A DNA stretch of 64,000 nt. It comes from an uncultured Bacteroidales bacterium (GTDB taxonomy: Bacteria > Bacteroidota > Bacteroidia > Bacteroidales > Muribaculaceae). The stretch covers positions 36,144 through 100,143 of the forward strand of contig CAMWLW010000001.1 of NCBI GenBank assembly GCA_947175245.1, read 5' to 3'. Shown one piece after another: positions 44,523 through 64,000 of this stretch. The number at the start of each line of letters is the position of its first letter. Position 1 is the stretch's first letter. Both the position numbers and the translations under genes were made by a program. The notes beneath the pieces are model-generated. The model was not told the DNA's origin. It ran no database searches and saw only the letters and a list, made by a program, of their open reading frames with translations.

Positions 44523-44524
44523 AA

Positions 44525-45894: not shown

Positions 45895-45919
45895 CTGTGT
45901 TATGGGGTAGGGTTATAAA

Positions 45920-47551: not shown

Positions 47552-47630
47552 GTTAACTTATTTTAAGGGTTTTACTCTATCTTGTTGTATTTAAGCGTCA
47601 ATTACCTCTCACAGTGTTAAAAAGTATTGA

Positions 47631-47660: not shown

Positions 47661-47690
47661 AATATTTAGCGTAAAATTTCATTAAACAGC

Positions 47691-49721
47691 TCAGATTGCC
47701 TTCTTGGCGGCATCAAAAGCCTTTACTTTGATTGATTTTCCGTCGGGCAGAGTTACCTTGCGGTCGGTATCGCTCATGTTGGCTACAATGTAGAATCGCT
47801 TGCCCTTGACATCGGTCCACTCGGCACCCATTACCACGGGAGTAGGCTGATAGTTGGGGACATCGAACGTGGGATTATCGCCGCCGGGAGTAAACTCGGC
47901 CATGAAACGGCCACCGAAGAAGATATCATGGTTGTCCTTGCGGAACTTGGCCAGATTCTTGAGCATCAGAGCCTCGTTGCGGTTGGCCTCGTTCATGAGC
48001 AGCTTAGGCTCGACCCAGCCGAGCTGAGAACCCCACAGGAGTGACTTCATGGTCATGTAACGCAGTGAGCCGTCGTTGATTTTCCAGGGCACGTAGGTAA
48101 AGCCGCTGTAGACACAACGGTCGCTGTAGATAAGGGGGAAGAGGGGCACCATGCGCATATAGCTGACGTGGGGCGAATTGACCACGAGCATCATGTCAAA
48201 GAGGTCGATGTAGGGCTCGGCATTCTCCTCGGTTGTCATGGCCTGGTCGGGGGTATAGAACGACTCGCGCATGTCGGTGAGCACCTTGCGGTAGGCCTCG
48301 GGCCACCATGAGCCGCCGCCCTTTCCGTGACCGTGATTGTCGGCATAACAGGGCTCGGCCGCGGCACAGCCTATCTGATCCATGTACACGCCGTCGGTGC
48401 CGAGGCTGTCGAGAATGTGACGGTTGAGGTAGTGGAGCTTATCCTGCCACAATTGGCTCGCGGGACATGTGACGGTATTGAGCACCTTGGAACTGTAGAC
48501 CTCGGTGTAGAGAGTTCCGTCGGGTTTGCGGCACGATGCCTCCTTGGCGTTCTCGGCCTTATAGCTGGCGGTGGCGGGATCCCACAGGCGGCCGTTGATA
48601 TAAGGTGTTACATGAGCACCCATCTGCTGAGCCTCGGCAATCATCTCCTTGAAGTCGGGCTTGGCGGGGAAATACTCGGGATAGTGGGTATCGAAAGGAT
48701 AATTGTGCCAATAATACCAGTGGAGGCCTACACCCTTGCCATAATACTTGAGGGCCTCGCGCACGGCAGCCATCGTGGCCTCGTCGACATCACCGGGACG
48801 CAGCCACATGTCGGCATGCTCGACCCAGGGGGCGATGTGACGGTCGCGTACGTTCTTTGCAGCCCACTTGGTGTCAAGCACCCAGGGGCGATACCACTCG
48901 AGGGCTGTCTGCTGCCAGCCGGCAGGGTTATAACCGGCCTCGACTGCATAGGGAAGGCTGAACTTACCGCCCTTGCTCCAGTCATAGTTGGCTGTGACTT
49001 CCTGCTGGAATGTCACGTTGTCGCCTTCCATCTTCATGCGCATCACCTTGTTACCGCCATCGGCATCACGGGGTGCGAAGAATACGGTGCCCTCGTTGCC
49101 GGCAGGGTCGTGCATCATCATGAGCTGCATCGAGCCGGTCACCGAGGGGTAGCGGGTCTGGAGCTGTCCCTCGCGGCTGAGGTTGTACTCACAGCCATAG
49201 GCTATGGGCATGATGGCTTTGCCGCCCTTGATCTGCTTGAATGTGATGCGCGGGAACTCGACATCGGTAATCACCCAGTCCTCGGGCAGCGAGGCGTCGA
49301 TGTAGAACGACGGCATGGCGGCATCATCGGCAAGAGCCACAGTCACGGTCACGGGCCAACGGGGGGTATCGTCGAGCACCATGTCCCAGGTGGCCTTTAC
49401 GGCCGGCACACCGTCACGGTCGGTTATCTCGGTACCGCGGTACACGCCCCACTGGGGACGCAGCTGGGGATTCTCGCCTACCGGGCCACGGTAAGTGAGC
49501 TGCCAGGGATAGGTAGTCGAGCCATTGGCAGGCAGTAAGTTCTTGCCCGACATATTGAATTCCTTGAACTGAAAATCATTTCCACCGCCAAATGTTAGAG
49601 AGGCGTTCTCGTTGGCCAGGACAATGTCGCCTGCCGCGGTGCGGCTCGCGGTTGTCTTGGCTTCGGCCGCAAAGGAGAGAGCGGCAATAAGCAATGAAGC
49701 TACAATCGGTGATTTTGTCAT
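47691..49721 (-). CDS. Uncharacterised secreted 676-aa protein, glycosidase-like (TIM-barrel suspected)
   Basis: Signal peptide MTKSPIVASLLIAALSFAAEA. Central region GLHWYYWHNYPFDTHYPEYFP ... HVTPYINGRLWD ... GVYMDQIG ... TTEENAEPY has the alternating hydrophobic-strand/acidic-residue look of a (beta/alpha)8 glycosidase. It resembles what I recall as DUF6259-type proteins, which I cannot verify here. Confidence 0.45.
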   Translation of the reverse strand: MTKSPIVASLLIAALSFAAEAKTTASRTAAGDIVLANENASLTFGGGNDFQFKEFNMSGKNLLPANGSTTYPWQLTYRGPVGENPQLRPQWGVYRGTEITDRDGVPAVKATWDMVLDDTPRWPVTVTVALADDAAMPSFYIDASLPEDWVITDVEFPRITFKQIKGGKAIMPIAYGCEYNLSREGQLQTRYPSVTGSMQLMMMHDPAGNEGTVFFAPRDADGGNKVMRMKMEGDNVTFQQEVTANYDWSKGGKFSLPYAVEAGYNPAGWQQTALEWYRPWVLDTKWAAKNVRDRHIAPWVEHADMWLRPGDVDEATMAAVREALKYYGKGVGLHWYYWHNYPFDTHYPEYFPAKPDFKEMIAEAQQMGAHVTPYINGRLWDPATASYKAENAKEASCRKPDGTLYTEVYSSKVLNTVTCPASQLWQDKLHYLNRHILDSLGTDGVYMDQIGCAAAEPCYADNHGHGKGGGSWWPEAYRKVLTDMRESFYTPDQAMTTEENAEPYIDLFDMMLVVNSPHVSYMRMVPLFPLIYSDRCVYSGFTYVPWKINDGSLRYMTMKSLLWGSQLGWVEPKLLMNEANRNEALMLKNLAKFRKDNHDIFFGGRFMAEFTPGGDNPTFDVPNYQPTPVVMGAEWTDVKGKRFYIVANMSDTDRKVTLPDGKSIKVKAFDAAKKAI

Positions 49722-49731
49722 CTCGTTATAC

Positions 49732-51975
49732 TTATTGTTTTGATATTTGTGATTCTTGTTGATTGGTCAGGACGTCGAGAAACCAGTCTCGGGCCTCATC
49801 ATGAGGCAGGGCCACGTTGAGCACCCGACGCTCGGACGCCGGGAGCACGGCACGCCCGTTCTTGTCGCGGCGTGTCTTTAAGCGTTTGCCGTCAAATGTA
49901 AACAGCTCGACTGCAGGCGAACCGGCAGGCAGTGTCACGGTCGACTCGCCGTTGCCGTTCCAGTATATTACAGCGGTGTGAGTATCGTCGACAGGATAGG
50001 TGAACGCGCGCACGGGCATCGTGGCATTGAGCGAGTCGGCTGTGAGCTGCGATACCTGATGCACCTCGACATGGCCGCCGCGGCGCGGCATTATAGTCCA
50101 CTCGGTGTCGGGGTCACGCATGGCGAGTTTCAGGCTGTCGGGGATGGTATGTGCAAGTTTGGCCGTCTCCCACAGGTTGATAGCCTGCAGGTTATCGGGT
50201 GTGCGTGGATGACGCTCGAGGTCGGGCATATTGGCTACGAGCGATATGGGCGAGTTCCAGGCGAGGGCCTTAGAGCAGATATAGTCGTACATGTCGGGCT
50301 GCATGCCTATGGTCTTTTCGCTCGGGGCGAGATAGTTGACCCACCCGAAGTTGACCGATGTGAAGTCGCATGCTACCTGGCGGGCACATCTCAGTGTGTA
50401 ACGTTTCATGGCCGGGCGTATGCGCTCGGGAGGGAAGATGTCGAACGCATTACCGCGCGAGAGTATGTGCCAGCCGTAGTGTGACTTCTGGGCGCCCTCC
50501 GACCACATCGGCTCGGGCTTCATGGCATTGAACACCTCGAGCTGAGAGCGCGATACATTATACCAATAGGGCATAGGAATATCCTCGGCACCGTCAAAGT
50601 AGACGAACCTGAAGCCACAATCGGCATAGATCTTGCCGAGTCGCTCGGCTATCTCGCGCTGTATGCCGCTGTTCTGATCGATGCGTATGAACAAGGGCCA
50701 GTCGTCGACATCAAGGTGACGTGCCTCTGACGAGGCGGCATGGGCCGAAGGCTTGGAGTTGTAGCAGCCGCGCTGACAGCCGGTGAATGTGTAAGGAGCG
50801 GTCTTGGTAACGTCGGTGAACATGATGAGCTCGTCGTCGAGCTGCAACAGGCGGCGTCCTTTCTCCATCCTCACGCCCTCGGGGCACTCCTCGACAGTGA
50901 TGACGGTGGCAGCCTCATCGATAGGCTCGGAGAGGGTGAAACGTGCCACGACATTGCCGCGGCGGTCGGGGGTACCGTCATTGATATAGGGGTCGGTGAC
51001 GGCTATCTTGGAATAGTGTATGTGTATGCCGGGAATCATACCGGCCTCGGTAATCTTGCGGGTAATCTCCTGGAGGTCGGCCATGCCGCGCGGATATTCG
51101 GGACGCCAGTCGTAGTGACCGCATGCCTTGGCAAAGTCAAAATAGTACACCACCATAGTCTTGAGACCGGCCTGACGGGCAAGCTCGATGTTGCGGTCGA
51201 TGTTGTCGACTGTGACATCGCGCAGCTCGTAGTAGCTCATCGGATACTCGGCGCGGCGGCGGCTCTCGACGCCACGGGGCATGTCATAGTCGCGCTCGAG
51301 CACGTCGATGCGGTCGAGCAGGCTGTCGGGCCGGGTCACCATAAGCGCGGCGCCCGAGTCAAAGAGCTTCACGGCGGTGTGAGTGGCGGCGAGCAAGGTG
51401 GTGTTGTCGCGCTCCACACGCGAGTCGATATAGGTGGTGGGATGGGTGCCGACGAGAGCTACAGCCACATCGTCGTCCCACATGACGTTGAGCCACTCGC
51501 CAAACCGCTCGAGCTTCTTGAGCGGCAACTGCATGATGGTGAGCTCATCGAGCTCGGTCTTGCGTTTGACGCCATAGTCCTCGATGCGGTAATCACGGTC
51601 GACGGGGGTGAAAGCGATATAGTCGGGAGTGATGTCGACCTTGATTTTGACGATGTCGTATGTATCGGTGAACTCGACGCACAGCGTGTCGCCCGACATA
51701 TAACATTTATTGGACGGGAACGAACGCGGTTTGGCCGGGAACATCAGGAAGTTCTCGTTATCGTATGGGCGGTACTGGGTAATCACACATACGGGAGCAT
51801 CGACCCCGGGCTGCAGACACTCACGGCCGGTGGATTTCTGCACAAGGCTTTTAACCATGCCGTCGTCGCCCACGGTGAGCGCCATCTCGTCGTTCTGCAA
51901 CACGACATCGGCAACTGCCGGCAGTGTCATTACTGCCGACAGCACCGGGGTCAATATATATTTACCAATATTCAT
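49732..51975 (-). CDS. Uncharacterised secreted ~747-aa protein, possible TIM-barrel glycosidase-like fold
   Basis: The ORF track start at 51990 is TTG; the ATG at 51973-51975 gives MNIGKYILTPVLSAVMTLPAVA. Strand-like blocks LKTMVVYYFDF, IPGIHIHYS, FRFVYFDGAED, GWHILSRGNAFD. I recognised no named family. Confidence 0.4.
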   Translation of the reverse strand: MNIGKYILTPVLSAVMTLPAVADVVLQNDEMALTVGDDGMVKSLVQKSTGRECLQPGVDAPVCVITQYRPYDNENFLMFPAKPRSFPSNKCYMSGDTLCVEFTDTYDIVKIKVDITPDYIAFTPVDRDYRIEDYGVKRKTELDELTIMQLPLKKLERFGEWLNVMWDDDVAVALVGTHPTTYIDSRVERDNTTLLAATHTAVKLFDSGAALMVTRPDSLLDRIDVLERDYDMPRGVESRRRAEYPMSYYELRDVTVDNIDRNIELARQAGLKTMVVYYFDFAKACGHYDWRPEYPRGMADLQEITRKITEAGMIPGIHIHYSKIAVTDPYINDGTPDRRGNVVARFTLSEPIDEAATVITVEECPEGVRMEKGRRLLQLDDELIMFTDVTKTAPYTFTGCQRGCYNSKPSAHAASSEARHLDVDDWPLFIRIDQNSGIQREIAERLGKIYADCGFRFVYFDGAEDIPMPYWYNVSRSQLEVFNAMKPEPMWSEGAQKSHYGWHILSRGNAFDIFPPERIRPAMKRYTLRCARQVACDFTSVNFGWVNYLAPSEKTIGMQPDMYDYICSKALAWNSPISLVANMPDLERHPRTPDNLQAINLWETAKLAHTIPDSLKLAMRDPDTEWTIMPRRGGHVEVHQVSQLTADSLNATMPVRAFTYPVDDTHTAVIYWNGNGESTVTLPAGSPAVELFTFDGKRLKTRRDKNGRAVLPASERRVLNVALPHDEARDWFLDVLTNQQESQISKQ

Positions 51976-52006
51976 TAATTCTGTTGTCAATATATATCAA
52001 AATCAA

Positions 52007-53626
52007 CTAATCACGATACTCGGTCTCGCTCTCACGGGTTTTCTTTTTGATCACCGGGCCGGCGGGTTCGGGATGATGTGCCGCATCGCGGTGGTCGAAG
52101 TAATAAATGCCGAGACTGTCAAACAGCCTGTAGGCGTCGCCGAGGCGATTTTCAAACGAGGCGTAGTCCTTATTGGCCGGCAGAGTCCATGCAGCCTCGG
52201 AGAGTGCACACAGGCGGGGCCATGTCATGAACTCGACGCGGTCGCTGTTGTGCATCAGCTCGCTCCAGGCATTGGCCTGCATGCCCGACACATGCTTTTG
52301 CATGTCGGGGGTAACGCCTATCGATTCAAACCACGGGTCGGGAAAGGCATAGACGTCCTCGAGGGGGCAGAAGCCGTCCCAGATACGGCCCACCGAGTGG
52401 GTGTCGTGCTGGACGAAGTCGAAGTAGAGCGGTTTGCGGGGACACATCACGGTGGTGTAACCGGCCGAGAGCGAGCGTGTCAGATACTGAGGCTTGTCGT
52501 GACGCCACCACATGATGTTGGTCGACTTGTCGACATCGAGGTCAATAAGCTCGTCCCAGCCAAGCAGGGTCTTGCCAAGATGTGCCACCTCGGCTATCAT
52601 GCGGTTCATGAAATAGCGCTCACACTGCTTCACGTTGGTGAAGCCCTCGCGATCCATCAGAGCCTTGACATCGGGGTCGACTTTCCAGGCATTGATGCCA
52701 TAGGCCACCTCGTCACCGCCTATGTGGATATAGGGGCCGGGGAAAAGCCCGGCAATCTCGGCGAGAATGTCGCTTAGGAAGGTGTAGGTTCCCTCCTTGC
52801 CGGGATTGAATGTAAAATCGGGGAAAATGCCCTCACCGCCGCCGTTGAACTCGGGGTAGGCACGGTTGGCGGCCGTAGCGTGGCCGGGCATGTCAATCTC
52901 GGGGATAATCATAACGTGACGGCGCGCCGCATAGTCAACGATGTCGCGTATCTCGTCCTGTGTGTAGTAGGCACAGGGCGAGTCGGGGTCGCTGTGTGAG
53001 CCGATGCCGCCTACGGTAGCGAGCAACGGGTATTTCTTAATCTCCACACGCCAGCCCTGGGCATCGGTCAGGTGCCAGTGGAAGCGATTGAGCTTGTAAT
53101 AGGCCATCAGGTCGATGAACTTCTTGACACTCTCGACGCCTGTAAAATGGCGTGCATCGTCGCGCATGAAACCGCGCCAGGCATAACGGGGCGCGTCGGT
53201 CACGGTCACACACGGCAGCTGCTCACAGTTGCCGACGAGTTGCAGGAGTGTCTGGACGCCGTAGAACGCGCCGGCAGCCTCGCGGGCACTGATCACGATG
53301 CGGTCACGGCCTATCTCGAGGCGATAACCCTCGGGCTCGGCTATGGCATTGTCGGCAGCGAGCACGATACCGCGTTTGGCCTTGCCGGCAACGTCGACCT
53401 CGACAATCTTACCGGCAGCCGCAAGTTTCTCGGCCAGGAAAGCGCCCTCTGACGCAAATGCCGGGTCGGTCACCGTGATATCGAAACCGTTCTTTTCATT
53501 ATAGAAGCCCTTTGACTCCTTCACATCGGCAGGATAGGGTATCACAGGCAGCCTGTCGGCGCTCGCCGTGCCACACACGGCAATCAGAAATGTCAGAAAA
53601 AATATAATGCGATTCATCATGGTCAT
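52007..53626 (-). CDS. GH20 beta-N-acetylhexosaminidase
   Basis: AWRGFMRDDARHFT. NRFHWHLTDAQGWRVEI. IIPEIDMPGH. YIHIGGDEV. 539 aa with a signal peptide. Confidence 0.9.
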   Translation of the reverse strand: MTMMNRIIFFLTFLIAVCGTASADRLPVIPYPADVKESKGFYNEKNGFDITVTDPAFASEGAFLAEKLAAAGKIVEVDVAGKAKRGIVLAADNAIAEPEGYRLEIGRDRIVISAREAAGAFYGVQTLLQLVGNCEQLPCVTVTDAPRYAWRGFMRDDARHFTGVESVKKFIDLMAYYKLNRFHWHLTDAQGWRVEIKKYPLLATVGGIGSHSDPDSPCAYYTQDEIRDIVDYAARRHVMIIPEIDMPGHATAANRAYPEFNGGGEGIFPDFTFNPGKEGTYTFLSDILAEIAGLFPGPYIHIGGDEVAYGINAWKVDPDVKALMDREGFTNVKQCERYFMNRMIAEVAHLGKTLLGWDELIDLDVDKSTNIMWWRHDKPQYLTRSLSAGYTTVMCPRKPLYFDFVQHDTHSVGRIWDGFCPLEDVYAFPDPWFESIGVTPDMQKHVSGMQANAWSELMHNSDRVEFMTWPRLCALSEAAWTLPANKDYASFENRLGDAYRLFDSLGIYYFDHRDAAHHPEPAGPVIKKKTRESETEYRD

Positions 53627-53640
53627 TGTGTCTTAAATTG

Positions 53641-56439
53641 TTATTCGATTCTTACTGTCGGGGCGCCCTCGAGCATGTCGGCGGCCACCCGGGCCGTGAC
53701 CGTACGGGTCTCGCCCGGCAGCAGCGTGATGAAATTGTCGCTCCAGAACACGGGGTTGACCGACGGGCCGACGGGCGTATCGCCGATGGTCAGATGCTTG
53801 AAGAACGCACACCCGGCGTCGTCACACGCGAGCTTGACCGTCACCAGCCATTCGTCGCCGTCACGCACGGCGGTGACCTCGCGGGTGAGGTTGCCCTGGG
53901 GCAGACGCAGCAGCCAGTAGAAGTTCTGATGCTGACTGTAGCGCCAGTAGGTGTTGTGAGACACCTCGTTGCCGTCGGCATCGGTGAGTGACAGCGTCAC
54001 GAGATACACGGCGGCGAGTTTCTGACCGCGCGGTATCGCCGGCAGCCCGACATAGCTGTTGGGCCCGAGACTGACGGTGTCGCGGCGGCTCCACTGCTGC
54101 TTCATCGAGAAGTCATGGATGCGGGTCTCGAGCACGAGCGGCCCCGTCGGGCGCTGCGTGTTGTTGACCACGGTCAGGCTCTCGGTGTTGGCGTTGAGCT
54201 GTGCGTGCACGGGCTCCATAGCCTTGCGTGTGAAGTAATAGGCGGCGTTGGGGGTCAGATACCAGTCGTACACCTGCCATGCCACATCGGGCCAGCACGA
54301 GTTGAGCTTCCACAGCATCACGCCGGTGGTGATATCCCACGCGCGATGATTGGCGGCCTCGATCATGGCCCGGTAGCCGTCGGCGCTGAGCAGCTGTGAC
54401 TTGAGAACGTAGTCGCGGGCCGACTCGGGGTCGCTGTAGAGCGTGCGGACGGCGTTGTCAAAGCCTCGGTACACGAAGTTGTTGACACACCACGCGCCGT
54501 GCTCGGCCCACACGCTGTCGAGCGGCCACAGGCGGTCGCCGACATCGAACGGCTTGTTGATGGTAGGTATGAATTTCTCGATGCTCTCATAGACGGGCGG
54601 CGCGGGCATGCCCAGCTCGTTTTTGAACATCTGGGTGTACACCTCGTCGATTTTGTCAAAGTAGTAGTCGCTCGGAGCCCAGTTGTAGTCGGGGGCGCCG
54701 TCGTCGGTGGTGCCTATCGGCATATCTTCGGCAAGCCAGGGTGTTAGCTTCTCCACATCCCAGCTTGTCGAGGTTGTCGGTATGAACGGACGCGACGGGT
54801 CGAGCGTGCGAGCCGCCTCGCGGGTGGCTATGTACAGGTCGCGCGCAGGGCACACCTCGTTGACGCCCACCCAGGTCACGATGGCGGGGTGATTGCGGTA
54901 ACGTTTGATCTGGTCGCGCACATGTGCGGCGGCGAGAGCGTGGTCGTCGGGATTGTTCTGGTTGGCACGCCCGGGGAACATACGGTAGCACTGGTGGAAC
55001 ACGTGCCACCACATCAGGCCATACTTGTCACATGCCGCGAGCCACGCGTCGTCGGGCGTGGGCATATCCTCGCTGCCGATGGTGTTGGCACCGAGCTCGG
55101 CCATGAGGCGCACCTGGTCGTAGATGTTACGGGTCGAGTTGTCGAGCAGTATGTCGGGCTGAATCCAGCCGCCGCGCGAGAACACCTCGACGCCGTTGAC
55201 TATGAACACCAGGCCGTGCTCCACATCCTTGCCCAGGTGTGACTCATACTCGCGCTCCATGAGGCGGGTCTCGACCTGCCTCAGACCGAAGTCACACCCG
55301 AAACGGCTCTCTGCACCACCCCGGGGCTTGAACACAAGCTCGAGGTGCTGCAGCGGCTGTGAGCCGTAGCCGTTGGGATACCACAGCGGCGGATTGACAA
55401 TCGACAGCGACTCGTACTCGTCGGGAGTCAGGGTCACGGTCGTCGTGTCACCGGCGCCGATGGTTACATCACGCTTGATGGTGATGGGAGATATGAGAGT
55501 GGAAACCTTTTTCTTATAGGTAATGAAATCAATCTCGGGGAGCGAGCTGATGCGCGCCGTCAGCGTGCCCCTGACGTCGCGGCCCGTATTGTTGACCAGC
55601 GGTACCGTGACGGTGACGCGTGCCAGCGTCGTGTCGCGGCCCGGCAACTCGGTGACCACATGAGGGTCATCGAACGTCACGGGGCCTGTAGCCTCGAGCG
55701 TCACAGGCAGATAGATGCCCATGTTGCGGTCGCGCACCACCGGCGCACAGTCCCATCCGCCGCTCATCTTGAGCGTCTCGTCGCGGTGAATGTCGCCGGC
55801 ATTGCCGCGGTTGGGCCCGAAGAGCGTGAACTGCGTGCCGGGCGACGGATCGCCGGGATGGTCTACCTGATATATCTTGATAGCCACCGCGTTGTCGCGG
55901 CCGGGCTTGATATAGGGCGTAACGTCAAACCTGAAACGGCGGAACATGCCCACGACACTGTCGCGGTCGGCCACCCGATGACCGTTGACCCACACGTCGG
56001 CGCGATAGTTGATGCCGTCCAGATTGAGCCACACCAGCTTGCCGCGCCATGCCGACGGCACCTTGAACTCCACGCGGTACCACCACGGCTGCTGCCACGG
56101 ATTTGACCCGTCTGCCAGGTGGTTGTACTTGTCGAGCCCCAGACGGGCGTTGAACTCATCGCTCACATCGGGTATCAGGTAGTTGTTCATCCCCACCCTC
56201 GGGTCGGGATAGACACCGTCACACACCAGGGCGTTGAGCACCGTCGACGGCACCGTCACATGATGCCACGACGAGTCGTCGAAGCCCACAGCCGACACCG
56301 CGCTGTCCGGCGACGTCACGCCGCCGCTGTGATACAGGCGCCAGCCCTCGGGCGTCAGAGCCCCCGCAGCGAGCGACATGCACGCTGCCATCAAGACCGA
56401 TATGTAGGTTTTTAAATTCAAAACTTCAACGTTATTCAA
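53641..56439 (-). CDS. GH2-family glycosidase (beta-mannosidase / exo-beta-D-glucosaminidase-like clade)
   Basis: Sugar-binding-domain pattern WHHVTVPSTV ... VWLNLDGINYRADVWVNGHRV. GGWDCAPVVRDRNMGIY. TIM-barrel acid/base WVGVNEV. The codon at 56437-56439 is TTG and overlaps the ROK stop by 8 nt. The alternative ATG at 56391 would give a poorer signal peptide, so the start is uncertain. Confidence 0.75.
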   Translation of the reverse strand: MNNVEVLNLKTYISVLMAACMSLAAGALTPEGWRLYHSGGVTSPDSAVSAVGFDDSSWHHVTVPSTVLNALVCDGVYPDPRVGMNNYLIPDVSDEFNARLGLDKYNHLADGSNPWQQPWWYRVEFKVPSAWRGKLVWLNLDGINYRADVWVNGHRVADRDSVVGMFRRFRFDVTPYIKPGRDNAVAIKIYQVDHPGDPSPGTQFTLFGPNRGNAGDIHRDETLKMSGGWDCAPVVRDRNMGIYLPVTLEATGPVTFDDPHVVTELPGRDTTLARVTVTVPLVNNTGRDVRGTLTARISSLPEIDFITYKKKVSTLISPITIKRDVTIGAGDTTTVTLTPDEYESLSIVNPPLWYPNGYGSQPLQHLELVFKPRGGAESRFGCDFGLRQVETRLMEREYESHLGKDVEHGLVFIVNGVEVFSRGGWIQPDILLDNSTRNIYDQVRLMAELGANTIGSEDMPTPDDAWLAACDKYGLMWWHVFHQCYRMFPGRANQNNPDDHALAAAHVRDQIKRYRNHPAIVTWVGVNEVCPARDLYIATREAARTLDPSRPFIPTTSTSWDVEKLTPWLAEDMPIGTTDDGAPDYNWAPSDYYFDKIDEVYTQMFKNELGMPAPPVYESIEKFIPTINKPFDVGDRLWPLDSVWAEHGAWCVNNFVYRGFDNAVRTLYSDPESARDYVLKSQLLSADGYRAMIEAANHRAWDITTGVMLWKLNSCWPDVAWQVYDWYLTPNAAYYFTRKAMEPVHAQLNANTESLTVVNNTQRPTGPLVLETRIHDFSMKQQWSRRDTVSLGPNSYVGLPAIPRGQKLAAVYLVTLSLTDADGNEVSHNTYWRYSQHQNFYWLLRLPQGNLTREVTAVRDGDEWLVTVKLACDDAGCAFFKHLTIGDTPVGPSVNPVFWSDNFITLLPGETRTVTARVAADMLEGAPTVRIE

Positions 56440-57325
56440 ACATCAGAGCCGCGGCGCCTATGAAGCCGGCATTGTTGCCCAGTCCGGCCGTCAGTATATC
56501 CAGATGCTCGGCAGCCTCCTGGGTTATATATTTGGGCAGAAGTCCCTTGACGCGGGTCAGGAACAGGTCGCTCGAGTCTACGACCGAGCCGCCGAGTATC
56601 ACGGCGTCAGGGTCGATGGTGTTGAGCGTCCAGGCCAGTGCGAACACCAGGCCGTCGGCAAACTGGTCGAACACCTTCAGCGCCGATTCCTCACCGGCAC
56701 GCGCGCGCTCGGCAATCTCCTTGCCGCCTATCTCGACGCCGGTCAAGTCCTTGTACATGCGGCTCAGACCCGGGCCCGACACATAGTCCTCGATAACGCC
56801 CTCACGGTAAGGCGACTGCCATATCTCGCCCGAGTTACCCGTGAAACCTGTCCAGATGCGGCCACTGTTGATGAACGCGCATCCTATGCCCGTGCCCAGG
56901 GTGATACCCAGAATCGACTGGCGGCCGCGACCGGCACCCCACACAGCCTCGCCCAGCATCATGGCGTTCGCGTCATTGTTCATGTGCACCTCCTTGCAGG
57001 TGGTGAGCTCGATAATGTTCTTCAGCGGATAGTTGTGCAGCATCGGCAGCGTGTTGCACTTCAGTATCGTGCCCGAAATGATGTCGAGCGGGCCCGAACA
57101 GCCTATGCCGATACCGCGCAGACGGTTCTCGGGCACCTGTGCCAAAGCCTCGTTGAGCAGGTCAAGGATTCCGGCCACGATTTTCTCACGCGGGCCGTAC
57201 GCATTTGTAGGCACCTCACGAGGGGTTCCCAACACTTTGCCGGTGGAATCGACGACTCCACACTTCATTTTCGTACCGCCTATATCAAGGCCAATCGCCA
57301 GGTCACGTGTTCCGATATTTGTCAT
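56432..57325 (-). CDS. ROK-family sugar kinase (cytoplasmic; hexose or N-acetylhexosamine kinase candidate)
   Basis: LAIGLDIGGTKMKCGVVD (ATPase phosphate-1). MNNDANAMMLGEAVWGAG. GIGCAFI. The segment aligned to the ROK zinc motif reads GNSGEIWQSPYREGVIEDYVSG, so the usual His/Cys zinc ligands are absent. No signal peptide. Confidence 0.75.
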   Translation of the reverse strand: MTNIGTRDLAIGLDIGGTKMKCGVVDSTGKVLGTPREVPTNAYGPREKIVAGILDLLNEALAQVPENRLRGIGIGCSGPLDIISGTILKCNTLPMLHNYPLKNIIELTTCKEVHMNNDANAMMLGEAVWGAGRGRQSILGITLGTGIGCAFINSGRIWTGFTGNSGEIWQSPYREGVIEDYVSGPGLSRMYKDLTGVEIGGKEIAERARAGEESALKVFDQFADGLVFALAWTLNTIDPDAVILGGSVVDSSDLFLTRVKGLLPKYITQEAAEHLDILTAGLGNNAGFIGAAALMFE

Positions 57326-57362
57326 ATTGATTTATTATAGCTTAAATTGACAATTAAATACT

Positions 57363-59366
57363 TTAATCGGGCAGAACCGATACATAATCGATCTCGGCCA
57401 CGGGCTTGCTCAGAGTCTCCGAAGTCTCGATCTGCAGATAGAACGTGTCGTGGTTGAAAGGCCAGCCCTGCGGATAATAGGGCAGCGACGAGTCATACAG
57501 GTCTTCCTGAACGTTGATCACACGGCCATCTACGGTGAAGATGACATCTTTCTCAGTCCATTTGCACTCAAGTTCAATCCAGCGGCCGGCGATATTGTCA
57601 TCAATCAAGATCGAACGGCGCGGATTACCGAGGTTATCGCAGTTCTGCATCGTCTGCGAGCCACAATACAGCTCGTCGGGACGCGATGAGTCATACTTCA
57701 GCAGGAACAGTTCGCCGCTCTTGGGCAGCGCACCGAGTTTCTCGTTGGTGGGCAGCAGACGCACGGTGAACGTAGCGCCTGTGATACCGGGCAGAATCTT
57801 GACACGGGCTTTCACGGTGCCATACATGAAGTCATGCTTGCGGCGCGTATCGACGGCAGCCTTGCCCTTCATCACCAGCGAGCCGTTCTCACACTGAACG
57901 ATGCCCGATACATTCCAGTCGGTCTTATCCAGGCTGCTCGACTCAAAATCTGTGGTGAAATCGGGGTTCTTGCCCTCCACCATCCTGCGGCGGCGCTCCT
58001 GTATGAACCATGCGAGAGTGTCGATGAACTCGCGGTCGCGTATGTCGGTCTTCTTGGTGAAGTTGTACATGCCTGCGCCACCCTCATAGTAGGCAATCGA
58101 CGACTCGCGGTAGATGCCGTGACGACGGAACGCCGACATATACTTGATACCGCGGTCGCGCTTACAGTCGGCAAAGTCAACCGAAGCGGCCATGTCAAAC
58201 TCCATCTCCACACCCATGTGATGGCTGTATGCCAGTTCGCACACGCGATCCAGACGCGAATCGGCCACGTTGCGGTCCCAGAAGAAAGTCGGCTGTATGT
58301 AAGCCGCGTCAAAGCCCAGCTGACGCCACTCGCTGAAGCCTACCGATGCAAAGTAGGGAATCCAGTAGAACTGCTTGCCCAGCGAGCGCACATACTCACC
58401 CATCGCTATCGTCACATTGCGGCTGTTCAGCGACTTCTCGGGCATCCAGTAGAAACCGGCTATCTCGATATTCTGGAAGTTGGCTGCGGCAAAACGCTCC
58501 CTCAGTTTGTCGACATACCATTTGCATGCCGCGATACGGTCAGCGTCATTGTTGAAATCGATTTTCTTGCCGTTCAGCTCGCCCCAGTCGGTCTGACCAT
58601 ACTGCGGGTCGGGCATCGAGATAACGATTTTATGCTTGAACGAGGGCTTGCCTATGCGGGCGATCTCCTCGCCAATGCACTGGTCGAGAGCGTGGATAGC
58701 CTTGCCTTTCTCAAAGTGACGGTCTATGAGCCATTCCCAGTCAGATTTAACCGACGGGGTCTTGCCGTTCTGGGTCTCAAAAGTCACACCGCGGCCGCTG
58801 TCAAACTCACAGAACAGGAAACCGTCAAACAGCCAGTCACGCACACCGTGGCGGTTGATATGCACCACATAGGGGCGTATCTGCTCAAGATTGAAATCCA
58901 TGCGCTGTATGCCACCCTGATAGATGAGCACCAGGTCGCGTATATCGTTCTTGAGATAATAGCCGCTCGGGGTGAACACCGGGCCGGTCGACGGCTCGTT
59001 ATACACCGCCCATGCCAGGGTTACGTTATGTGCAAGCTGAGTTATCGCAACATTCTGAGCCACCGCGCGCAGAGTCCTCTGAACCGACGAACCGTTTTCA
59101 TAGCCCTTAGCCACGGCCGTGGCCTCGACATTGTACGTGCCCAGCGGCACTTTCACACCCTGAGTGCTCGTGAAAGTCAGCTCAAGATTATTGCTGGCCT
59201 TGAGGAACTTGATTGAACGCGATTCTATGGTATAGCCGTCAGGAATCGACTCGGTGAAAACCACGTCATATACCGGCTCTACCGGGTCATCATCTTTAGA
59301 ACATGCGACGAATATCAATGCAAATACGACGCACAAATAAAAATGCTTGGCAAATAATCTGCTCAT
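57363..59366 (-). CDS. Surface lipoprotein with an N-terminal beta-sandwich, a DUF4855 core, and a C-terminal GH16/ConA-like jelly-roll carrying a degenerate catalytic motif
   Basis: Lipobox FVAC followed by SKDDDPVE (acidic export-signal-like). The DUF4855 core is paralogous to 44525..45742. The C-terminal ~185 aa read GTVKARVKILPGITGATFTVRLLP ... LPKSGELFLLKY ... FTVDGRV. ELFLLK occupies the place of the GH16 ExDxxE motif (codons at 57696-57716). Confidence 0.65.
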   Translation of the reverse strand: MSRLFAKHFYLCVVFALIFVACSKDDDPVEPVYDVVFTESIPDGYTIESRSIKFLKASNNLELTFTSTQGVKVPLGTYNVEATAVAKGYENGSSVQRTLRAVAQNVAITQLAHNVTLAWAVYNEPSTGPVFTPSGYYLKNDIRDLVLIYQGGIQRMDFNLEQIRPYVVHINRHGVRDWLFDGFLFCEFDSGRGVTFETQNGKTPSVKSDWEWLIDRHFEKGKAIHALDQCIGEEIARIGKPSFKHKIVISMPDPQYGQTDWGELNGKKIDFNNDADRIAACKWYVDKLRERFAAANFQNIEIAGFYWMPEKSLNSRNVTIAMGEYVRSLGKQFYWIPYFASVGFSEWRQLGFDAAYIQPTFFWDRNVADSRLDRVCELAYSHHMGVEMEFDMAASVDFADCKRDRGIKYMSAFRRHGIYRESSIAYYEGGAGMYNFTKKTDIRDREFIDTLAWFIQERRRRMVEGKNPDFTTDFESSSLDKTDWNVSGIVQCENGSLVMKGKAAVDTRRKHDFMYGTVKARVKILPGITGATFTVRLLPTNEKLGALPKSGELFLLKYDSSRPDELYCGSQTMQNCDNLGNPRRSILIDDNIAGRWIELECKWTEKDVIFTVDGRVINVQEDLYDSSLPYYPQGWPFNHDTFYLQIETSETLSKPVAEIDYVSVLPD

Positions 59367-59406
59367 ATATACATTTTATTTAGGTTGTTATTGAATTTTA
59401 ATTGAA

Positions 59407-60465
59407 TCACTCACGTGCCGTGACTTTCGCACCGTGTGTGAAAATACCGGGCTCAATGCCCTTGTACTCACGCGCCCAGGCCTCGATAGCCACCTGCACC
59501 GGGATTATCGACGTGATGGCGAACAGCTCGGGGCGCGGAGCCTCGGCAGCCACCACCGTCAGCCCCTCGCGCGGCGTCATGGCATCCTCACGGTCAGTCA
59601 CAAGCAGCACACGGCCGCCAAAAGCGAGCACATCCTCAATCAGACGGCCAATCTGCTCCCACGTGCCTGACGCAGTCGGAGCGAGAATAACAGCCGCGAA
59701 GCCCGGGCCCACCATCTCGAGCGGCCCGTGGCGGAACTCGCCGCCGGCCAGCGCTTGTGCCGGAGTGTGGCTCGCCTCCATCGCCATCAGGGCCGACTGT
59801 GAGGCCGAAGCCATCACTGTGCCTCGCGCTACAAATTGCAAATAAGACGCGTCGCCCAGGGCGCGAAGCATGCCCGGCAACACGTTGTCCCGTTGATTGA
59901 GCGCCGTCTCTATCGCGCCCGAGAGCCTGTTCCACACATCGGCGTCAAAGCCCTCGCCCGCCATGCGGCGGTCAATCATATATAATACCTGGAAACCTGT
60001 AATAAAAGTCTTGGTCGAGGTCTTTTCCTCGACACCGGCCACAGTGGGCAGCAGGATGTCGGCACGACGTCCCAGAGTGCTCTGAGGCTCATTGGTGATA
60101 ACGGCCAGACGCGGCGTCACACCGCGCTCCGAGAGCCTGTTCACCACATTGACCGTCTCATAGCTCTCGCCGCTTTGCGAGATAGCCACGAGCAGCGTGT
60201 CGCTGTCTACGGCATTGAGTTCATAGTGTAGTAGTTCGCCGGCATTGATAACCGTGACGGCGATACCGTGCTGTGCAAGAAAAACCTGTAACGCACCGGC
60301 CAGGAAGTAAGAACTGCCCATACCGGTCGCAACGACCTTACGCGCCGAGCGGGCAGCCTCGACAAACTTGTCGAGAGCCTCCTGTCCACCCGCCGTCTCA
60401 TAGTGAGCGGCAGTGGCGCTGATAGCGCCGGGCTGGCCAAGGATTTCCTGAAGGAACTGAGTCAT
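59407..60465 (-). CDS. Double-SIS-domain sugar-phosphate isomerase/deaminase (GlmS-C-terminal / AgaS / NagB-II-like), cytoplasmic
   Basis: VVATGMGSSYFLAG and LVAISQSGESYETV in SIS domain 1. A second SIS-like half has FVARGTVMASASQSALMAMEAS. 352 aa with no signal peptide. Confidence 0.7.
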   Translation of the reverse strand: MTQFLQEILGQPGAISATAAHYETAGGQEALDKFVEAARSARKVVATGMGSSYFLAGALQVFLAQHGIAVTVINAGELLHYELNAVDSDTLLVAISQSGESYETVNVVNRLSERGVTPRLAVITNEPQSTLGRRADILLPTVAGVEEKTSTKTFITGFQVLYMIDRRMAGEGFDADVWNRLSGAIETALNQRDNVLPGMLRALGDASYLQFVARGTVMASASQSALMAMEASHTPAQALAGGEFRHGPLEMVGPGFAAVILAPTASGTWEQIGRLIEDVLAFGGRVLLVTDREDAMTPREGLTVVAAEAPRPELFAITSIIPVQVAIEAWAREYKGIEPGIFTHGAKVTARE

Positions 60466-60500
60466 ATTAAACCTGTTAAATGATTAATACTGATTGGTTT

Positions 60501-60578
60501 GGTGGAGTTGAGAAGAGGAGAATGAAAAAAATGGAGAGAGAGGAGCCTGAGCAATCTTGAGAGAGAGAAGAGAGAGAG
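60501..60578. repeat. 78-nt purine-rich (GA-rich) tract on the plus strand, i.e. polypyrimidine on the transcribed minus strand, upstream of the SIS gene
   Basis: ggtggagttgagaagaggagaatgaaaaaaatggagagagaggagcctgagcaatcttgagagagagaagagagagag. By my count 13 of the 78 bases are pyrimidines. It contains short (GA)n runs. Confidence 0.9.
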
Positions 60579-60601
60579 TCAATATCCAAGTAAACAATTT
60601 A

Positions 60602-60636
60602 AATGGGGGCTTGCCCGTCGAGGGTTCACCCCCATT
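60602..60636 (-). terminator. Hairpin downstream of the Ig-repeat lipoprotein gene; candidate terminator or processing site
   Basis: aatggggg (60602-60609) / cccccatt (60629-60636), an 8-bp stem with a structured 19-nt loop. On the minus strand it is followed by taaattgttt. Confidence 0.4.
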
Positions 60637-60665
60637 CGAGAGATTACTTATATATTAACGGGGTT

Positions 60666-62552
60666 TTAGATATCGAAACAGGTTATCTCGTAGGCGATGA
60701 GAGCCTGATCACTGACAAGCATATATACCTGTACGGCAGTTCCGTCTTCTGAACGAGCGAAGATAACGTCATTCATTTCAGTTGCGTTCTTGCCCAGTAC
60801 AGTACCTGTAGTGAAGCTATAGCCCGATGACATACCGGTAACAGTAACGCCCGTACCGGGGACACCTTCATTACCCTTAGCATTACCATCACGAGAGTCA
60901 AACACAAGACCGGTACCCAGCGACTTGGAATTAGGCGACATTGTAATATCGGCTACATAAAGTCTATAAGTCCAGTTACCGTTTGACGAATAGCCATTGG
61001 TTGTAGCGAGCAATTGTGTACCGTTAAATTCAATAACGTCATTACTCCTGGTAACATAGCTCCAGTTCGGTGTCAGGGGTGCAGGACTAACCCACCAGTG
61101 AGATTCGGGCTGTTCAAAAAATACACAACGGTTGTTGGCTGTACCGGCGGGTATATAGAATATGCCCATACGTGCCATACCTTGATCCCATACATAGCTC
61201 CACGGAGCCTCTGAGGTCAACATTCTACACTTAGTCGAACACCACATCGAGGCCGCGCCGGCACCATTTCCGGCCCATTCTACATAAGCCTTGCTATAGG
61301 TACCGTTTACAAACGGGAGGATAACACAACGGGGATGAGCTCTGGAGATTGTACCAATTGCAGCATTACCAGATGTAATATCACCCTTACATGAAATGGT
61401 ATTGAACATATCATAATTATTCTGGCCGTTCACACCCCTGGGTGCACCCTGGAAGTATGAGCCATTCATATCAGCCCATAAAATAGGCTTGGGAGCATTC
61501 TCTATACCGTTCACCCAGGCAAAGATACGTACATTAGGATCGGTAATAACACCGCCATTATAATTGACATTAGAATTGACGTATGTGGCAGCGATTAAAT
61601 GGCCTGCATCGTCAGTACATATAGCTGCGAACGAACGGTCAGTAGGCAGTCCTGTTACGTTTACTTTCACATCCTCAAGATACTTACCTGTAAAGCGGTC
61701 GTACACAGGCATTTTTGAAACATCAAGACGATTGCTGAGAATCAGATAGTCACCTACAACAGCCATCGTCGTATTGGCGCCTACCTCAAATCCCCTGGGA
61801 TCGCTTGTCAAAGGCTGGAAACCGAATAAAGCTGCTGTATAGCCGGCGCCATAATCCTTAATGGCGGGATAGTCTACAACAATATCATACACAGCCTTTG
61901 TAACACCATCTTGAGCTGTTACTGTGATCTGAGGATAATCACTCAGGTCGGCGATTCCGGTTTCAGGATCATAAGCCGAGCACTCAAAAGTAGCCCACGG
62001 TGCAACATTGATAATGGCCGAATGTAAGGCACCGTCAATGGCCGACGATGTCTTGTAGATTGATACTGTGCCATGCTCACCTTCGGCAGCAGGAGCCTTG
62101 ATTATTATCGTAGCACGTTCCATCTCGGTAAGCACAACCGAAGCGATATCGGTTGAGCTCGATTTCACATACTCGGCGAGGATAGTATAAGAGGTAGCAT
62201 GACCCTTATCGTCCAATAGATTTGTACGATAGCCGGCGGCCAGGTCGTGAATACCGCTAATCGAAGGATTGAACGAGTAACCAACAGGAGTAGTAGCCTC
62301 AAGTTTCATCTGAGTGAGGTCACCCATGATAGGATCAGTGTCACTGATGTAATACGGTACCTGAACAGTTATTGTACCTGCCTCGGGATCTATTATAGCA
62401 GGGTACTCATCAGTATTACCCACTATAAATCCTTTGACGCTCAATTGAGCAGTGCCGATACCTTCAAGTCGGTTTATTTCGTCAACCTGGGTACAGCTCG
62501 AGAGCATGACGGTCGAGACAACGAGTCCGGCAAATAAATATTTAATTTTCAT
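60666..62552 (-). CDS. PUL-associated surface lipoprotein with N-terminal Ig-like repeats (DUF5018-like) and a large C-terminal beta-rich domain; surface glycan-binding protein candidate
   Basis: Lipobox MLSSC followed by TQVDE. ITVQVPYYISDTDPIMGDLTQMKLEATTPVGYSFNPSISG ... ATSYTILAEY resembles DUF5018-type modules. The position immediately after SusD is typical of SusE/F-position proteins. Confidence 0.5.
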   Translation of the reverse strand: MKIKYLFAGLVVSTVMLSSCTQVDEINRLEGIGTAQLSVKGFIVGNTDEYPAIIDPEAGTITVQVPYYISDTDPIMGDLTQMKLEATTPVGYSFNPSISGIHDLAAGYRTNLLDDKGHATSYTILAEYVKSSSTDIASVVLTEMERATIIIKAPAAEGEHGTVSIYKTSSAIDGALHSAIINVAPWATFECSAYDPETGIADLSDYPQITVTAQDGVTKAVYDIVVDYPAIKDYGAGYTAALFGFQPLTSDPRGFEVGANTTMAVVGDYLILSNRLDVSKMPVYDRFTGKYLEDVKVNVTGLPTDRSFAAICTDDAGHLIAATYVNSNVNYNGGVITDPNVRIFAWVNGIENAPKPILWADMNGSYFQGAPRGVNGQNNYDMFNTISCKGDITSGNAAIGTISRAHPRCVILPFVNGTYSKAYVEWAGNGAGAASMWCSTKCRMLTSEAPWSYVWDQGMARMGIFYIPAGTANNRCVFFEQPESHWWVSPAPLTPNWSYVTRSNDVIEFNGTQLLATTNGYSSNGNWTYRLYVADITMSPNSKSLGTGLVFDSRDGNAKGNEGVPGTGVTVTGMSSGYSFTTGTVLGKNATEMNDVIFARSEDGTAVQVYMLVSDQALIAYEITCFDI

Positions 62553-62573
62553 AGGATTGTTGTGTTAATAAGT

Positions 62574-64000
62574 TTATTTCCATGCATCATTCTGATCACA
62601 CAGTGGGTTACCCTGAATCTCACCGTAAGGAATCGGGAAGATCTCATATTTCTTTGGGAAGATACGGTCATAGTCGTCAGCCTCGATAACTTCATAGCTG
62701 AATGTATTGCCGGTCTTCGTAACCTTCACGCCGTGAACACGCTTGCCGTTAAGAACCTCCTGTGAGATACCCCAGCGCATGATGTCGTCATAGCGGTGAC
62801 CCTCGAGACCGAGCTCGCAGATGCGCTCCTTCTGGAGATCAACGAGATAATCTTCCCAAGTCGATTTCTGAGGCTTGGCAGGCATGTTTACGCGTGTACG
62901 AATCACGTTGAGGTCGTTGTAGGCATCGCTCCACTTGTTAAGACGGGCTGAAGCCTCCGAGCGGATGAAGTAAATCTCGGCGAGACGCATTTCGATCCAG
63001 TGCTGGTCGCTGAGTTTGTTAGTGAAGTTATAAGCCTTATCACCGGTCTTTGAGCTCAGGAACTTGCGTACATAGTAACCTGTGGTACTCTTATGTGTGT
63101 TGTCCTGGCCAGAAGGAGCATAGGTCATGCACTGGTCTGAACCACCTTCCCAACACTGAATTTCGACACCCTTGAAGGTGCTGCCGTTGGCGAGAATCGA
63201 CTGGTAGAAACGCGGGTCGCGGTTCTTGTAAGGCTCGTTGCCATACTTGGCGAGATTGGCCCAGTCAAATGCTTCCCAGTTGTCACCTACCTTGATGTCA
63301 AACTGCGATGCATACTCCTCGGTGGGGGTAGCGGCTGCACCGAACTGATCCTTATAACCCAACGAAGCGGCAAAGCTGGGAGGACACATATAGGTGTCAT
63401 AGTTGTGCTGCTTCTTCTCAACCTCAAACAGCACCGGGATAATGATCTCGGGGTTGGCGGGATTGGTGTAGATGGCAGCGATGTCGCTTGACAGCGAGTA
63501 TTTCTTTGAGTCAATCACAGCGGTAGCAGCATCGTAGGCCACCTGATAACGGCCGGCGATAAGAGCGGCGCGGGCTTTCATTGCCATTGCGGCCATCTTG
63601 GTAACGCGACCGTAGTCACCTGCGGGCCATGACTCGGGAAGGTCGGCTATAGCCTTGTCATACTCGCCGAGAATGAAGTCCCAGGTCTCTTCCTTGGTGG
63701 CACGAGCCTTGGCATTTTCATTCTGGTCATCAACCTTATCCTCGCTTACACGGAGAACAACACCGCCGTGGAACTTGGCAAGCTCCTGATAGGCGAAAGC
63801 GCGCAGGAAGCGTACCTCGGCCACACGGGCAGCTGCATCTTCAGCCGGGAGGTGGCTTATACGGCCGGCCTTGGCGTCAACAAGGAAATAATTGAATTTA
63901 CGTATGTGTGAGTACATCGTGCCCCAGTTGCTGCGGGGATTGCTCTCGACAGTCATCGAGTTGACCTGGCTGAAGAACTTGTTCTGACCCTGGCCTACGT
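62574..64000 (-). CDS. SusD/RagB-family nutrient-binding protein, C-terminal ~475 codons; the 5' end lies outside the window
   Basis: The ORF track lists 62574..63956 from an internal Met. The frame stays open to the window edge (upstream codons read VGQGQNKFFSQVNS). SusD hallmarks: EVRFLRAFAYQELAKFHGG, AEIYFIRSEA, KERICELGLEGHRYDDIMRW. Confidence 0.85.
   Translation of the reverse strand, partial: VGQGQNKFFSQVNSMTVESNPRSNWGTMYSHIRKFNYFLVDAKAGRISHLPAEDAAARVAEVRFLRAFAYQELAKFHGGVVLRVSEDKVDDQNENAKARATKEETWDFILGEYDKAIADLPESWPAGDYGRVTKMAAMAMKARAALIAGRYQVAYDAATAVIDSKKYSLSSDIAAIYTNPANPEIIIPVLFEVEKKQHNYDTYMCPPSFAASLGYKDQFGAAATPTEEYASQFDIKVGDNWEAFDWANLAKYGNEPYKNRDPRFYQSILANGSTFKGVEIQCWEGGSDQCMTYAPSGQDNTHKSTTGYYVRKFLSSKTGDKAYNFTNKLSDQHWIEMRLAEIYFIRSEASARLNKWSDAYNDLNVIRTRVNMPAKPQKSTWEDYLVDLQKERICELGLEGHRYDDIMRWGISQEVLNGKRVHGVKVTKTGNTFSYEVIEADDYDRIFPKKYEIFPIPYGEIQGNPLCDQNDAWK

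Follow-up and report, generated by a model that had tools for sequence, protein, structure and literature searches.

The stretch analysed here, hereafter the window, is 64,000 nucleotides of DNA from an uncultured Bacteroidales bacterium of the family Muribaculaceae (GCA_947175245.1, contig CAMWLW010000001.1). Positions 42228..64000 belong to a polysaccharide utilization locus (PUL) of the SusC/SusD type, recognised by Pfam and PDB searches; it lies on the minus strand, as do all window features given below. The PUL is a run of 12 co-directional genes that includes a SusC/SusD pair, in the order SusC, SusD, DUF5018, double-SIS, the gene studied here, ROK, GH2, GH20, a 752-residue protein, DUF6259, fn3-NAGPA, a 405-residue DUF4855 protein and another GH20. 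The gene studied here (57363..59366) is an intact open reading frame for a protein of 667 residues, which consists of a signal peptide with a lipobox, an N-terminal β-sandwich, a DUF4855 barrel and a C-terminal tail derived from glycoside hydrolase (GH) family 16.

The protein begins with a SpII-type signal peptide, MSRLFAKHFYLCVVFALIFVAC (59301..59366), which ends in the lipobox FVAC, with Cys22 as the lipobox cysteine, and is followed by SKDDDPVE. For the lipoprotein export signal (LES) of Bacteroidetes surface lipoproteins, PMC5080379 gives the consensus K-(D/E)2 or Q-A-(D/E)2 shortly after the lipobox cysteine. The segment SKDDDP (59283..59300) contains the first of these forms, in C22-S-K-D-D-D. 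The protein is a lipoprotein and is probably surface-exposed, as an initial annotation of the gene had proposed from the acidic stretch after the cysteine. Among homologues the type of signal follows the context: orphan copies of the Alistipes type have SPI signals, and in PUL-embedded homologues (P0097, P0099, P0105, P0112 and others) a lipobox is followed by an acidic LES-like stretch, which in some of them starts with C-SKD.

A full-length AlphaFold2 (AF2) model, built with 38 homologues in the alignment (mean pLDDT 86.3), has three folded parts: an all-β domain (residues 32-118), a (β/α)8 barrel (144-462) and a β-jelly-roll (485-666). Residues 1-28, mostly the signal peptide, have pLDDT below 50, and so does the linker 124-133, predicted to be flexible or disordered, which follows the first domain. 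This predicted β-sandwich (residues 30-122, 59001..59279) is new, being missing from the initial annotation; among the collected proteins it is seen only here and in P0002, a metagenomic relative of 673 residues. The N-terminal segment of a DUF4876 protein (E 1e-44) encoded elsewhere in the same genome (contig C53, positions 1-1041) is related to it (E 1e-7), which suggests a spacer domain common to several surface lipoproteins.

The DUF4855 barrel and its genomic company

The DUF4855 profile (PF16147, gathering score 27 bits) matches residues 144-451 over positions 1-311 of its 313, with 312.9 bits and E 3e-93, and the modelled (β/α)8 barrel extends over residues 141-462 (57981..58946). Comparison of the full-length model with the PDB by Foldseek matched the tail alone and nothing for the barrel; a separate model of residues 134-468, built with 94 homologues, was used instead (pLDDT 94.9, pTM 0.93). 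The best PDB fold match of this core model has E 9e-5, and the matches are generic (E 1e-4 to 1e-3, TM-score 0.4-0.5, root-mean-square deviation, rmsd, about 8 Å). They include Cwp19/GHL10, narbonin, hevamine and other GH18 chitinases, psicose epimerase, xylose isomerase, GlgE and GH10, the GH10 and GH5 matches reaching only E 5e-4 to 3e-3 with TM-scores of about 0.4. Neither a search with the single protein nor one with a 94-sequence profile found a sequence relative of the barrel in the PDB, and no second Pfam family was found in the DUF4855 core when the 94 alignment members were scanned at E-values up to 1. DUF4855 is thus a family without a close solved or characterised relative. Its identity with CAZy family GH163 is ruled out, as GH163 (BT1035) is DUF4838/PF16126 according to the literature.

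Residue conservation was computed over 221 non-redundant DUF4855 domains. The conserved acidic residues are Asp144 (90%), Asp181 (90%), Asp276 (87%), Glu310 (99%), Glu387 (95%) and Glu389 (97%); they are accompanied by the aromatic residues Trp210, Trp283, Tyr306, Trp307, Trp335 and Tyr427, many of them at the C-terminal ends of strands in the core model. The invariant set of Asp144, Asp181, Trp210, Gly262, Trp283, Tyr306, Glu310, Trp335, Pro337, Gln358, Glu387, Glu389 and Tyr427 is complete in the 667-residue protein, which deviates from the family consensus at N360T, L302I and F363W. Glu310 (58437..58439), just past barrel strand 4 (residues 300-307), is the candidate acid/base. The pair Glu387-Met-Glu389 (58200..58208) on strand 7 (residues 385-391) provides the candidate nucleophile. 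Glutamates on strands 4 and 7, assigned here by conservation and strand position and not by geometry, would correspond to the arrangement of retaining clan GH-A glycosidases. The initial annotation had left any catalysis to the DUF4855 core and suggested a look for conserved acidic pairs in a family alignment. The confidently modelled TIM barrel, the near-invariant glutamates of strands 4 and 7 (95-99% conserved) and the enzymes to which the domain is fused make this idea plausible.

In other proteins DUF4855 is joined to GH3, to GDPD in both orders, to AXE1, DUF6259, CBM32/F5-F8, Laminin_G_3, SLH and dockerin, and it also occurs in tandem copies, as would be expected of a catalytic module that acts on carbohydrates outside the cell. 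Among the 387 proteins collected, none is a fusion of DUF4855 with ROK. We surveyed 79 DUF4855 loci in GTDB species genomes, taking 10 kb on either side. SusD is present in 52 of them, GDPD in 24 (fused in 14), DUF6259 in 23, GlcNAc 2-epimerase (AGE) in 18, the phosphodiester glycosidase NAGPA in 17, GFO/IDH/MocA in 10 and ROK in 8. The neighbours of the tail-bearing homologues include NAGPA (L004, L005 and L006), AGE (L004 and L007), NagA and/or NagB (L001 and L005) and PIG-L (L007), and loci L004 to L007 are compact PULs. Because DUF4855 keeps company with GDPD, NAGPA, AGE and DUF6259 in these loci, the associations point to glycans rich in N-acetylhexosamine (HexNAc), possibly with phosphodiester bridges and of a teichoic-acid-like or capsule-like kind.

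DUF6259, given its presence in 23 of the 79 loci, looks like another uncharacterised partner enzyme, and in two genomes (L022 and L024) it stands in one open frame with DUF4855. A locus in a metagenome-assembled genome of B. thetaiotaomicron (L054) has a DUF4855-GDPD fusion at 9878-11683, which is taken to be BT0442, together with AGE, GH89, SusC/D, a BT_3987-N/CBM32 surface glycan-binding protein (SGBP), GH3, a CE2 esterase, DUF5009 and a GHL10-SASA protein.

The same company could be read in another way, with DUF4855 as an enzyme that is no classical GH, either a phosphodiester-cleaving enzyme or lyase or a metal-dependent isomerase or epimerase barrel, and with the tail as the binding part. 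Recurrent fusion to, or adjacency with, the phosphodiester-acting GDPD and NAGPA is in keeping with this. So are the absence of an Asn-Glu motif and the fact that some of the weak fold matches are barrels of D-psicose 3-epimerase and xylose isomerase. However, there is no His or metal-type motif among the residues conserved in at least 85% of the domains, the aromatic-rich conserved set with glutamates on strands 4 and 7 is typical of glycosidases, and fusions to GH3, CBM32 and dockerin are typical of glycanases. We therefore consider a non-glycosidase barrel improbable, and a glycosidase the better description of this domain.

The GH16-derived tail

The tail comprises residues 469-667 (57366..57962) and was delimited by phmmer searches against the PDB, by Foldseek and by the Pfam hits of its homologues. 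Over residues 496-636 the protein scores 17.6 bits (E 0.0027) against Pfam family PF00722 (GH16), under the 22-bit gathering score; eight tail-bearing homologues match this family, the best of them at E 8e-8. When all PDB sequences are searched with phmmer, laminarinases or β-1,3(4)-glucanases 7wwc and 5wut are matched at E 3e-5. The structure agrees with the sequence: GH16 accounts for 49 of the 50 best Foldseek matches listed for the full AF2 model, the lone exception, at rank 41, being 4xxp, an ortholog of Rv0315 deposited as uncharacterized, and the best match, 5wut, has a TM-score of 0.73, rmsd 3.1 Å and E 1e-15. The initial annotation had recognised the GH16-like fold by eye in about 185 C-terminal residues; the fold stands, and the length is closer to 199.

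Foldseek gives the tail the β-jelly-roll of clan GH-B, and the alignment gives it no ExDx(x)E motif of GH16. In particular, PKSGELFLLKY (57693..57725), the remnant of the GH16 consensus (W)PxSGEIDIxE, is aligned by phmmer opposite PKSGEIDIMEH and PQCGEIDILEY of GH16 laminarinases, so that GEIDIxE reads GELFLLK. Glu552 is kept at the position of the nucleophile, the helper Asp is replaced by Phe554 and the acid/base Glu by Lys557, which bears out the substitutions of the initial annotation. The cleft tryptophans are lost as well, the WPAIW strand of laminarinases (WPAxW) being TFTVR in the tail.

These replacements are shared, in kind, by the whole group. Column counts over 68 unique tails of homologues have position 552 always acidic (45 Asp, 23 Glu), position 554 nearly always aromatic (64 Phe, 2 Tyr) and position 557 variable (42 Asp, 9 Cys, 6 Lys, 5 Arg, 2 Val). 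Since the aromatic residue at 554 and the variation at 557 extend across the 68 tails, the loss of the GH16 machinery goes back to the origin of the clade and did not happen in the 667-residue protein itself. The tails have motifs of their own that are invariant or nearly so, namely N-x-Q620-E621-D622-L-[FY]-D, Y631-P-x-G-W635-P-F637-N (YYPxGWPFN), G-A-N-T-M-Q-M-N-E and C601-K-W603. The first of these reads QEDLYD in our protein (57492..57509), with Gln620, Glu621, Asp622 and Leu623 near-invariant, and it is followed by YYPQGWPFN; it is absent from the GH16 consensus. The domain is not in decay.

The tail is also faithful to its partner. When 222 non-redundant DUF4855 domains are placed in a tree, the cores that bear a tail group together, with one exception, in a single clade of 15 tips (support 0.86). 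The tail alone, searched against 5.8 billion proteins, gave two matches, both of them N-truncated fragments of DUF4855-tail proteins; no standalone tail and no tail on another catalytic module was found in this search, which relies on shared 5-mers and may miss distant standalone relatives. Because the tail is fused only to one DUF4855 clade and has invariant motifs of its own, it looks like an obligate, integral partner of one DUF4855 lineage, and this would fit a binding or specificity domain acting in cis better than a portable carbohydrate-binding module (CBM). We infer the binding role from this pattern of conservation and fusion.

A tail with a rewired active site, made for example of Glu552 and the invariant Glu621 and Asp622, would make the protein bifunctional. 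The nucleophile position is after all always Asp or Glu, position 557 is Asp in the Alistipes-type majority, which gives D-x-F-x-x-D, and the QED and GWPFN motifs are evidence of strong purifying selection. Yet position 557 varies between Asp, Cys, Lys, Arg and Val across the clade and is Lys in our protein, the position of the middle Asp is always aromatic, and the tryptophans of the WPAxW strand are gone. To our knowledge no GH16 enzyme functions without the second Glu. A catalytic tail is, in our estimate, quite unlikely, and we prefer to see the jelly-roll as a non-catalytic companion of the DUF4855 barrel.

The PUL and its sister loci

The gene is set between two genes of probable amino-sugar metabolism. 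Upstream of it lies a double-SIS protein similar to the isomerase domain of GlmS (59407..60465), and downstream a ROK sugar kinase (56432..57325) with the zinc-less ManNAc kinase 5nck as best PDB match (E 2.6e-32), glucokinases following so closely (2e-29) that the match is not decisive for its specificity. Further upstream stand SusC (64278-67478, outside the window), SusD (62574-64244, extending past the window end) and an SGBP-like DUF5018 protein (60666-62552). After ROK come GH2 (53641-56439), GH20 (52007-53626), the 752-residue protein (49732-51990), DUF6259 (47691-49721), a lipoprotein with fn3 and NAGPA domains (45920..47551), the 405-residue DUF4855 lipoprotein (44525..45742; Pfam E 2e-94) and the second GH20 (42228-44663). 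The GH2 protein matches the exo-β-D-glucosaminidase CsxA over its full length at E 5e-62, and β-mannosidases far more weakly, at E 1e-32. Because the locus combines two GH20 enzymes and a GH2 of the CsxA type with the GlmS-like and ROK proteins, it appears to process β-linked HexNAc or hexosamine (HexN) and to feed amino-sugar catabolism.

Several smaller observations concern the same genes. The GH2 and ROK genes overlap. A GH2 of the CsxA type, as opposed to a β-mannosidase or β-galactosidase, implies de-N-acetylated hexosamine in the substrate. The 752-residue secreted protein has no match in Pfam, NCBIfam or the PDB and yet is conserved at its place in the PUL in each of the four sister genomes described below. 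By phmmer it is tied to two GTDB loci, L016 and L038, and so is a 743-residue protein of L005, which is encoded between NAGPA and a tail-bearing DUF4855 gene. A separate, ordinary-looking PUL of the xylan type is situated at 2074-22992 of the window, with two SusC/D pairs, GH10, two GH43 proteins with GH43_C2, an esterase, a SASA-type esterase and a BT_3987-N/DUF5627 protein.

In this genome DUF4855 is found in three genes: the one studied here, the 405-residue member of the same PUL, which is without the tail, and a tail-bearing copy of 560 residues on contig C4. The first two are 40% identical over 342 residues (E 3e-83). The shorter lipoprotein, to which the initial annotation had attributed long blocks identical to the longer one, is real, and the longest identical runs are of five residues (AGFYW, EMEFD, ACKWY). 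The copy on contig C4 (34822-36504) has an SPI-type signal (ending AGECVAQ/F), is 62% identical to the 667-residue protein and has housekeeping genes as neighbours (gyrA-like and clpB-like genes and genes for arginine biosynthesis).

An orthologous PUL exists in four sister genomes (G002, G004, G005 and G009) and has the same order, SusC-SusD-DUF5018-(SIS-ROK-GH2)-GH20-752-residue protein-DUF6259-NAGPA-DUF4855, the last being the 405-residue form, which is kept in all four. None of them has the 667-residue gene. The reading frames of SIS and ROK overlap in G004 and are 27 nt apart in G009; in G002 the junction holds an unrelated spacer of 690 bp, and the PUL of G005 is without SIS, ROK and GH2. 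Over 83-129 nt the flanks of our gene are 77-83% identical to G002, G004 and G009, in which the intervening 2.0 kb is absent, so among the genomes sampled the gene is a species-specific addition of about 2 kb to a pre-existing PUL. The four belong to a set of 10 genomes of the same genus, none of which has the 667-residue form; one of the set (G004) has a copy of the C4 type. The GC content of the gene (54.2%) is close to that of its surroundings (55.2%).

No remnant of the gene was found by tblastn in the 690-bp spacer of G002 (E 6.5). This spacer (contig C9, 30494-31182) is AT-richer, with 48.5% GC, and is flanked by repeated motifs of the TTTAGGTTCAAGG type; in our genome the 40-nt gap upstream of the gene (59367-59406) contains ATTTAGGTTG. 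The SIS-ROK junction may have taken up insertions more than once.

The initial annotation had put this protein where PULs have their endo-acting initiator. Because four sister genomes keep the PUL without the gene, it is not the essential initiator, and that part of the annotation is weakened, even as its observations and its structural reading have held. A more specific form of the same idea is an initiator of N-glycan or chitin breakdown resembling endo-β-N-acetylglucosaminidases, in the role that GH18 has in other PULs. Hevamine, narbonin and chitinases, all barrels of the GH18 type, are indeed among the top weak fold matches, and the PUL has two GH20 enzymes, GH2 and amino-sugar catabolic genes with no GH18 to precede them. 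However, the GH18 motif DxxDxDxE is absent from the barrel, where strand 4 reads IEIAGFYWMPE; the GH2 protein is far closer to CsxA than to β-mannosidases, by the E-values given above; the locus is without α-mannosidase, sialidase, fucosidase or galactosidase; and the sister species manage without the gene. We think such an initiator very improbable.

Least probable of all is a non-enzymatic surface protein, which would either bind glycans with barrel and tail alike or have been carried along, inert, by a recent insertion. In its favour, no activity is known for any family member, relatives can dispense with the gene in the PUL, and an SGBP-like DUF5018 protein is already at hand. Against it, the reading frame is intact with GC near that of its surroundings, every family-invariant acidic residue is kept, and a pure binding domain would be unusual as a fusion partner of true enzymes and of separate CBMs.

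Proposed function and relation to known systems

On balance, and with slightly better than even confidence, we favour a three-domain surface carbohydrate-active enzyme (CAZyme) with a catalytic barrel and a non-catalytic tail derived from GH16, encoded by an accessory gene inserted into the PUL. The Ig-like N-terminal domain would be a spacer that keeps the DUF4855 barrel off the membrane. Catalysis would fall to the barrel, most likely a glycosidase, in which Glu310 may act as the acid/base and Glu387 or Glu389 as the nucleophile, in the 4/7 arrangement of retaining enzymes of the clan GH-A type. The tail, descended from a laminarinase-type jelly-roll and presumably incapable of the GH16 mechanism, would assist the barrel in cis, either by binding the substrate or by conferring specificity. 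The substrate may be a glycan rich in HexNAc or HexN, plausibly with sugar-1-phosphate or glycerol-phosphate bridges, either teichoic-acid-like or capsule-like. The gene, as an accessory between SIS and ROK, would supply a surface copy of an otherwise periplasmic enzyme.

Several facts weigh against this proposal. The Asn-Glu pair of clan GH-A is absent, the candidate acid/base being preceded by proline (P309-E310), and among solved structures none is close to the barrel, the best TM-scores being 0.4-0.5. The PUL is without GDPD or a phosphatase, and NAGPA is its sole pointer to phosphodiesters. The genomic context of DUF4855 in A. dispar (UxuA, KdgK, Eda) and in B. thetaiotaomicron (GH89) would also fit host glycans of a glycosaminoglycan-like or mucin-like kind. 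The sister species have the PUL without the gene, which cannot be its essential initiator. In the literature, where the family is present by gene name only, we found no published activity for any DUF4855 protein, and nothing useful on teichoic-acid PULs or on PF16147/BT0442.

A bolder version, which we hold only tentatively and think rather less probable than not, makes DUF4855 an undescribed GH family for phosphate-bridged amino-sugar polymers of other microbes, for instance HexNAc-1-P and glycerol-P glycans that are teichoic-acid-like or capsule-like, working together with NAGPA and GDPD; in one clade the dead GH16 domain would then serve as a specificity domain, and the lipoprotein version would have been recruited to the surface through insertion into the PUL. 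If this were so, a class of orphan Bacteroidota PULs, including BT0438-BT0447 of B. thetaiotaomicron, would become experimentally tractable. More generally, if the barrel turns out to be a glycosidase that acts on HexNAc polymers or phosphoglycans, it would define a new CAZy family, would explain orphan PULs of model gut bacteria, and would illustrate how a catalytic GH domain is recycled as an obligate non-catalytic partner. DUF4855 is large (clustering at 50% identity leaves about 1,200 clusters) and is found in many PULs of gut Bacteroidota and in surface proteins of Firmicutes. The protein described here offers an experimental handle on the family in its separable domains, three candidate catalytic glutamates and pseudo-GH16 partner, and the sister species, which share the rest of the PUL, provide a natural comparison with and without the gene.

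Of the known systems, GH16 laminarinases of the subfamily-3 type (ULam111, PDB structure 5WUT, and 7WWC, 6XOF and 3ILN) are homologous to the tail by sequence and fold. The tail has retained their PxSGE, the strand W-T-x-x-x-I-x-F-x-V-D-G and the acid at the position of the nucleophile, and differs from them in Phe554, Lys557, the lost tryptophans of WPAxW, its own motifs and its occurrence only in fusion with DUF4855. Inactive GH16-like proteins of the Rv0315 type (4XXP) are likewise jelly-rolls without the ExDxxE machinery and are presumed to bind glycans. Insect β-glucan recognition proteins are also catalytically inactive GH16-like proteins. Both of these are free-standing, whereas the tail is the obligate C-terminal partner of a TIM barrel; and β-1,3-glucan is an unlikely ligand for it, because the cleft tryptophans are lost and the locus is of the HexNAc type.

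For the barrel, the best structural neighbours are the functional region of Cwp19 (GHL10, 5OQ2), hevamine (1KR0) and narbonin (1NAR), (β/α)8 barrels that act on HexNAc polymers or are derived from enzymes that do. The likeness is generic, with 10-12% identity, E 1e-4 and no common catalytic motif. Within the family, BT0442 of B. thetaiotaomicron (PF16147) is likewise part of a SusC/D locus with amino-sugar genes, and, if correctly identified with the protein in L054, is a fusion of DUF4855 with GDPD, in place of which the 667-residue protein has an Ig-like domain and a pseudo-GH16 tail.

The overall plan of the protein, that of an LES lipoprotein encoded near SusC/D and an SGBP, with an Ig-like spacer before the catalytic module, recalls the SusG paradigm, BoGH16MLG (5NBO) and the GH18 enzyme BT3987. 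It differs from these surface endo-glycanases in that related genomes have its PUL without it, the insertion at the SIS-ROK junction being confined to this species among those sampled, and in that the family of its putative catalytic domain is uncharacterised. The protein thus combines elements of known kinds: a pseudo-glycosidase domain in an accessory part, and a TIM barrel that is a candidate CAZyme of an uncharacterised family.

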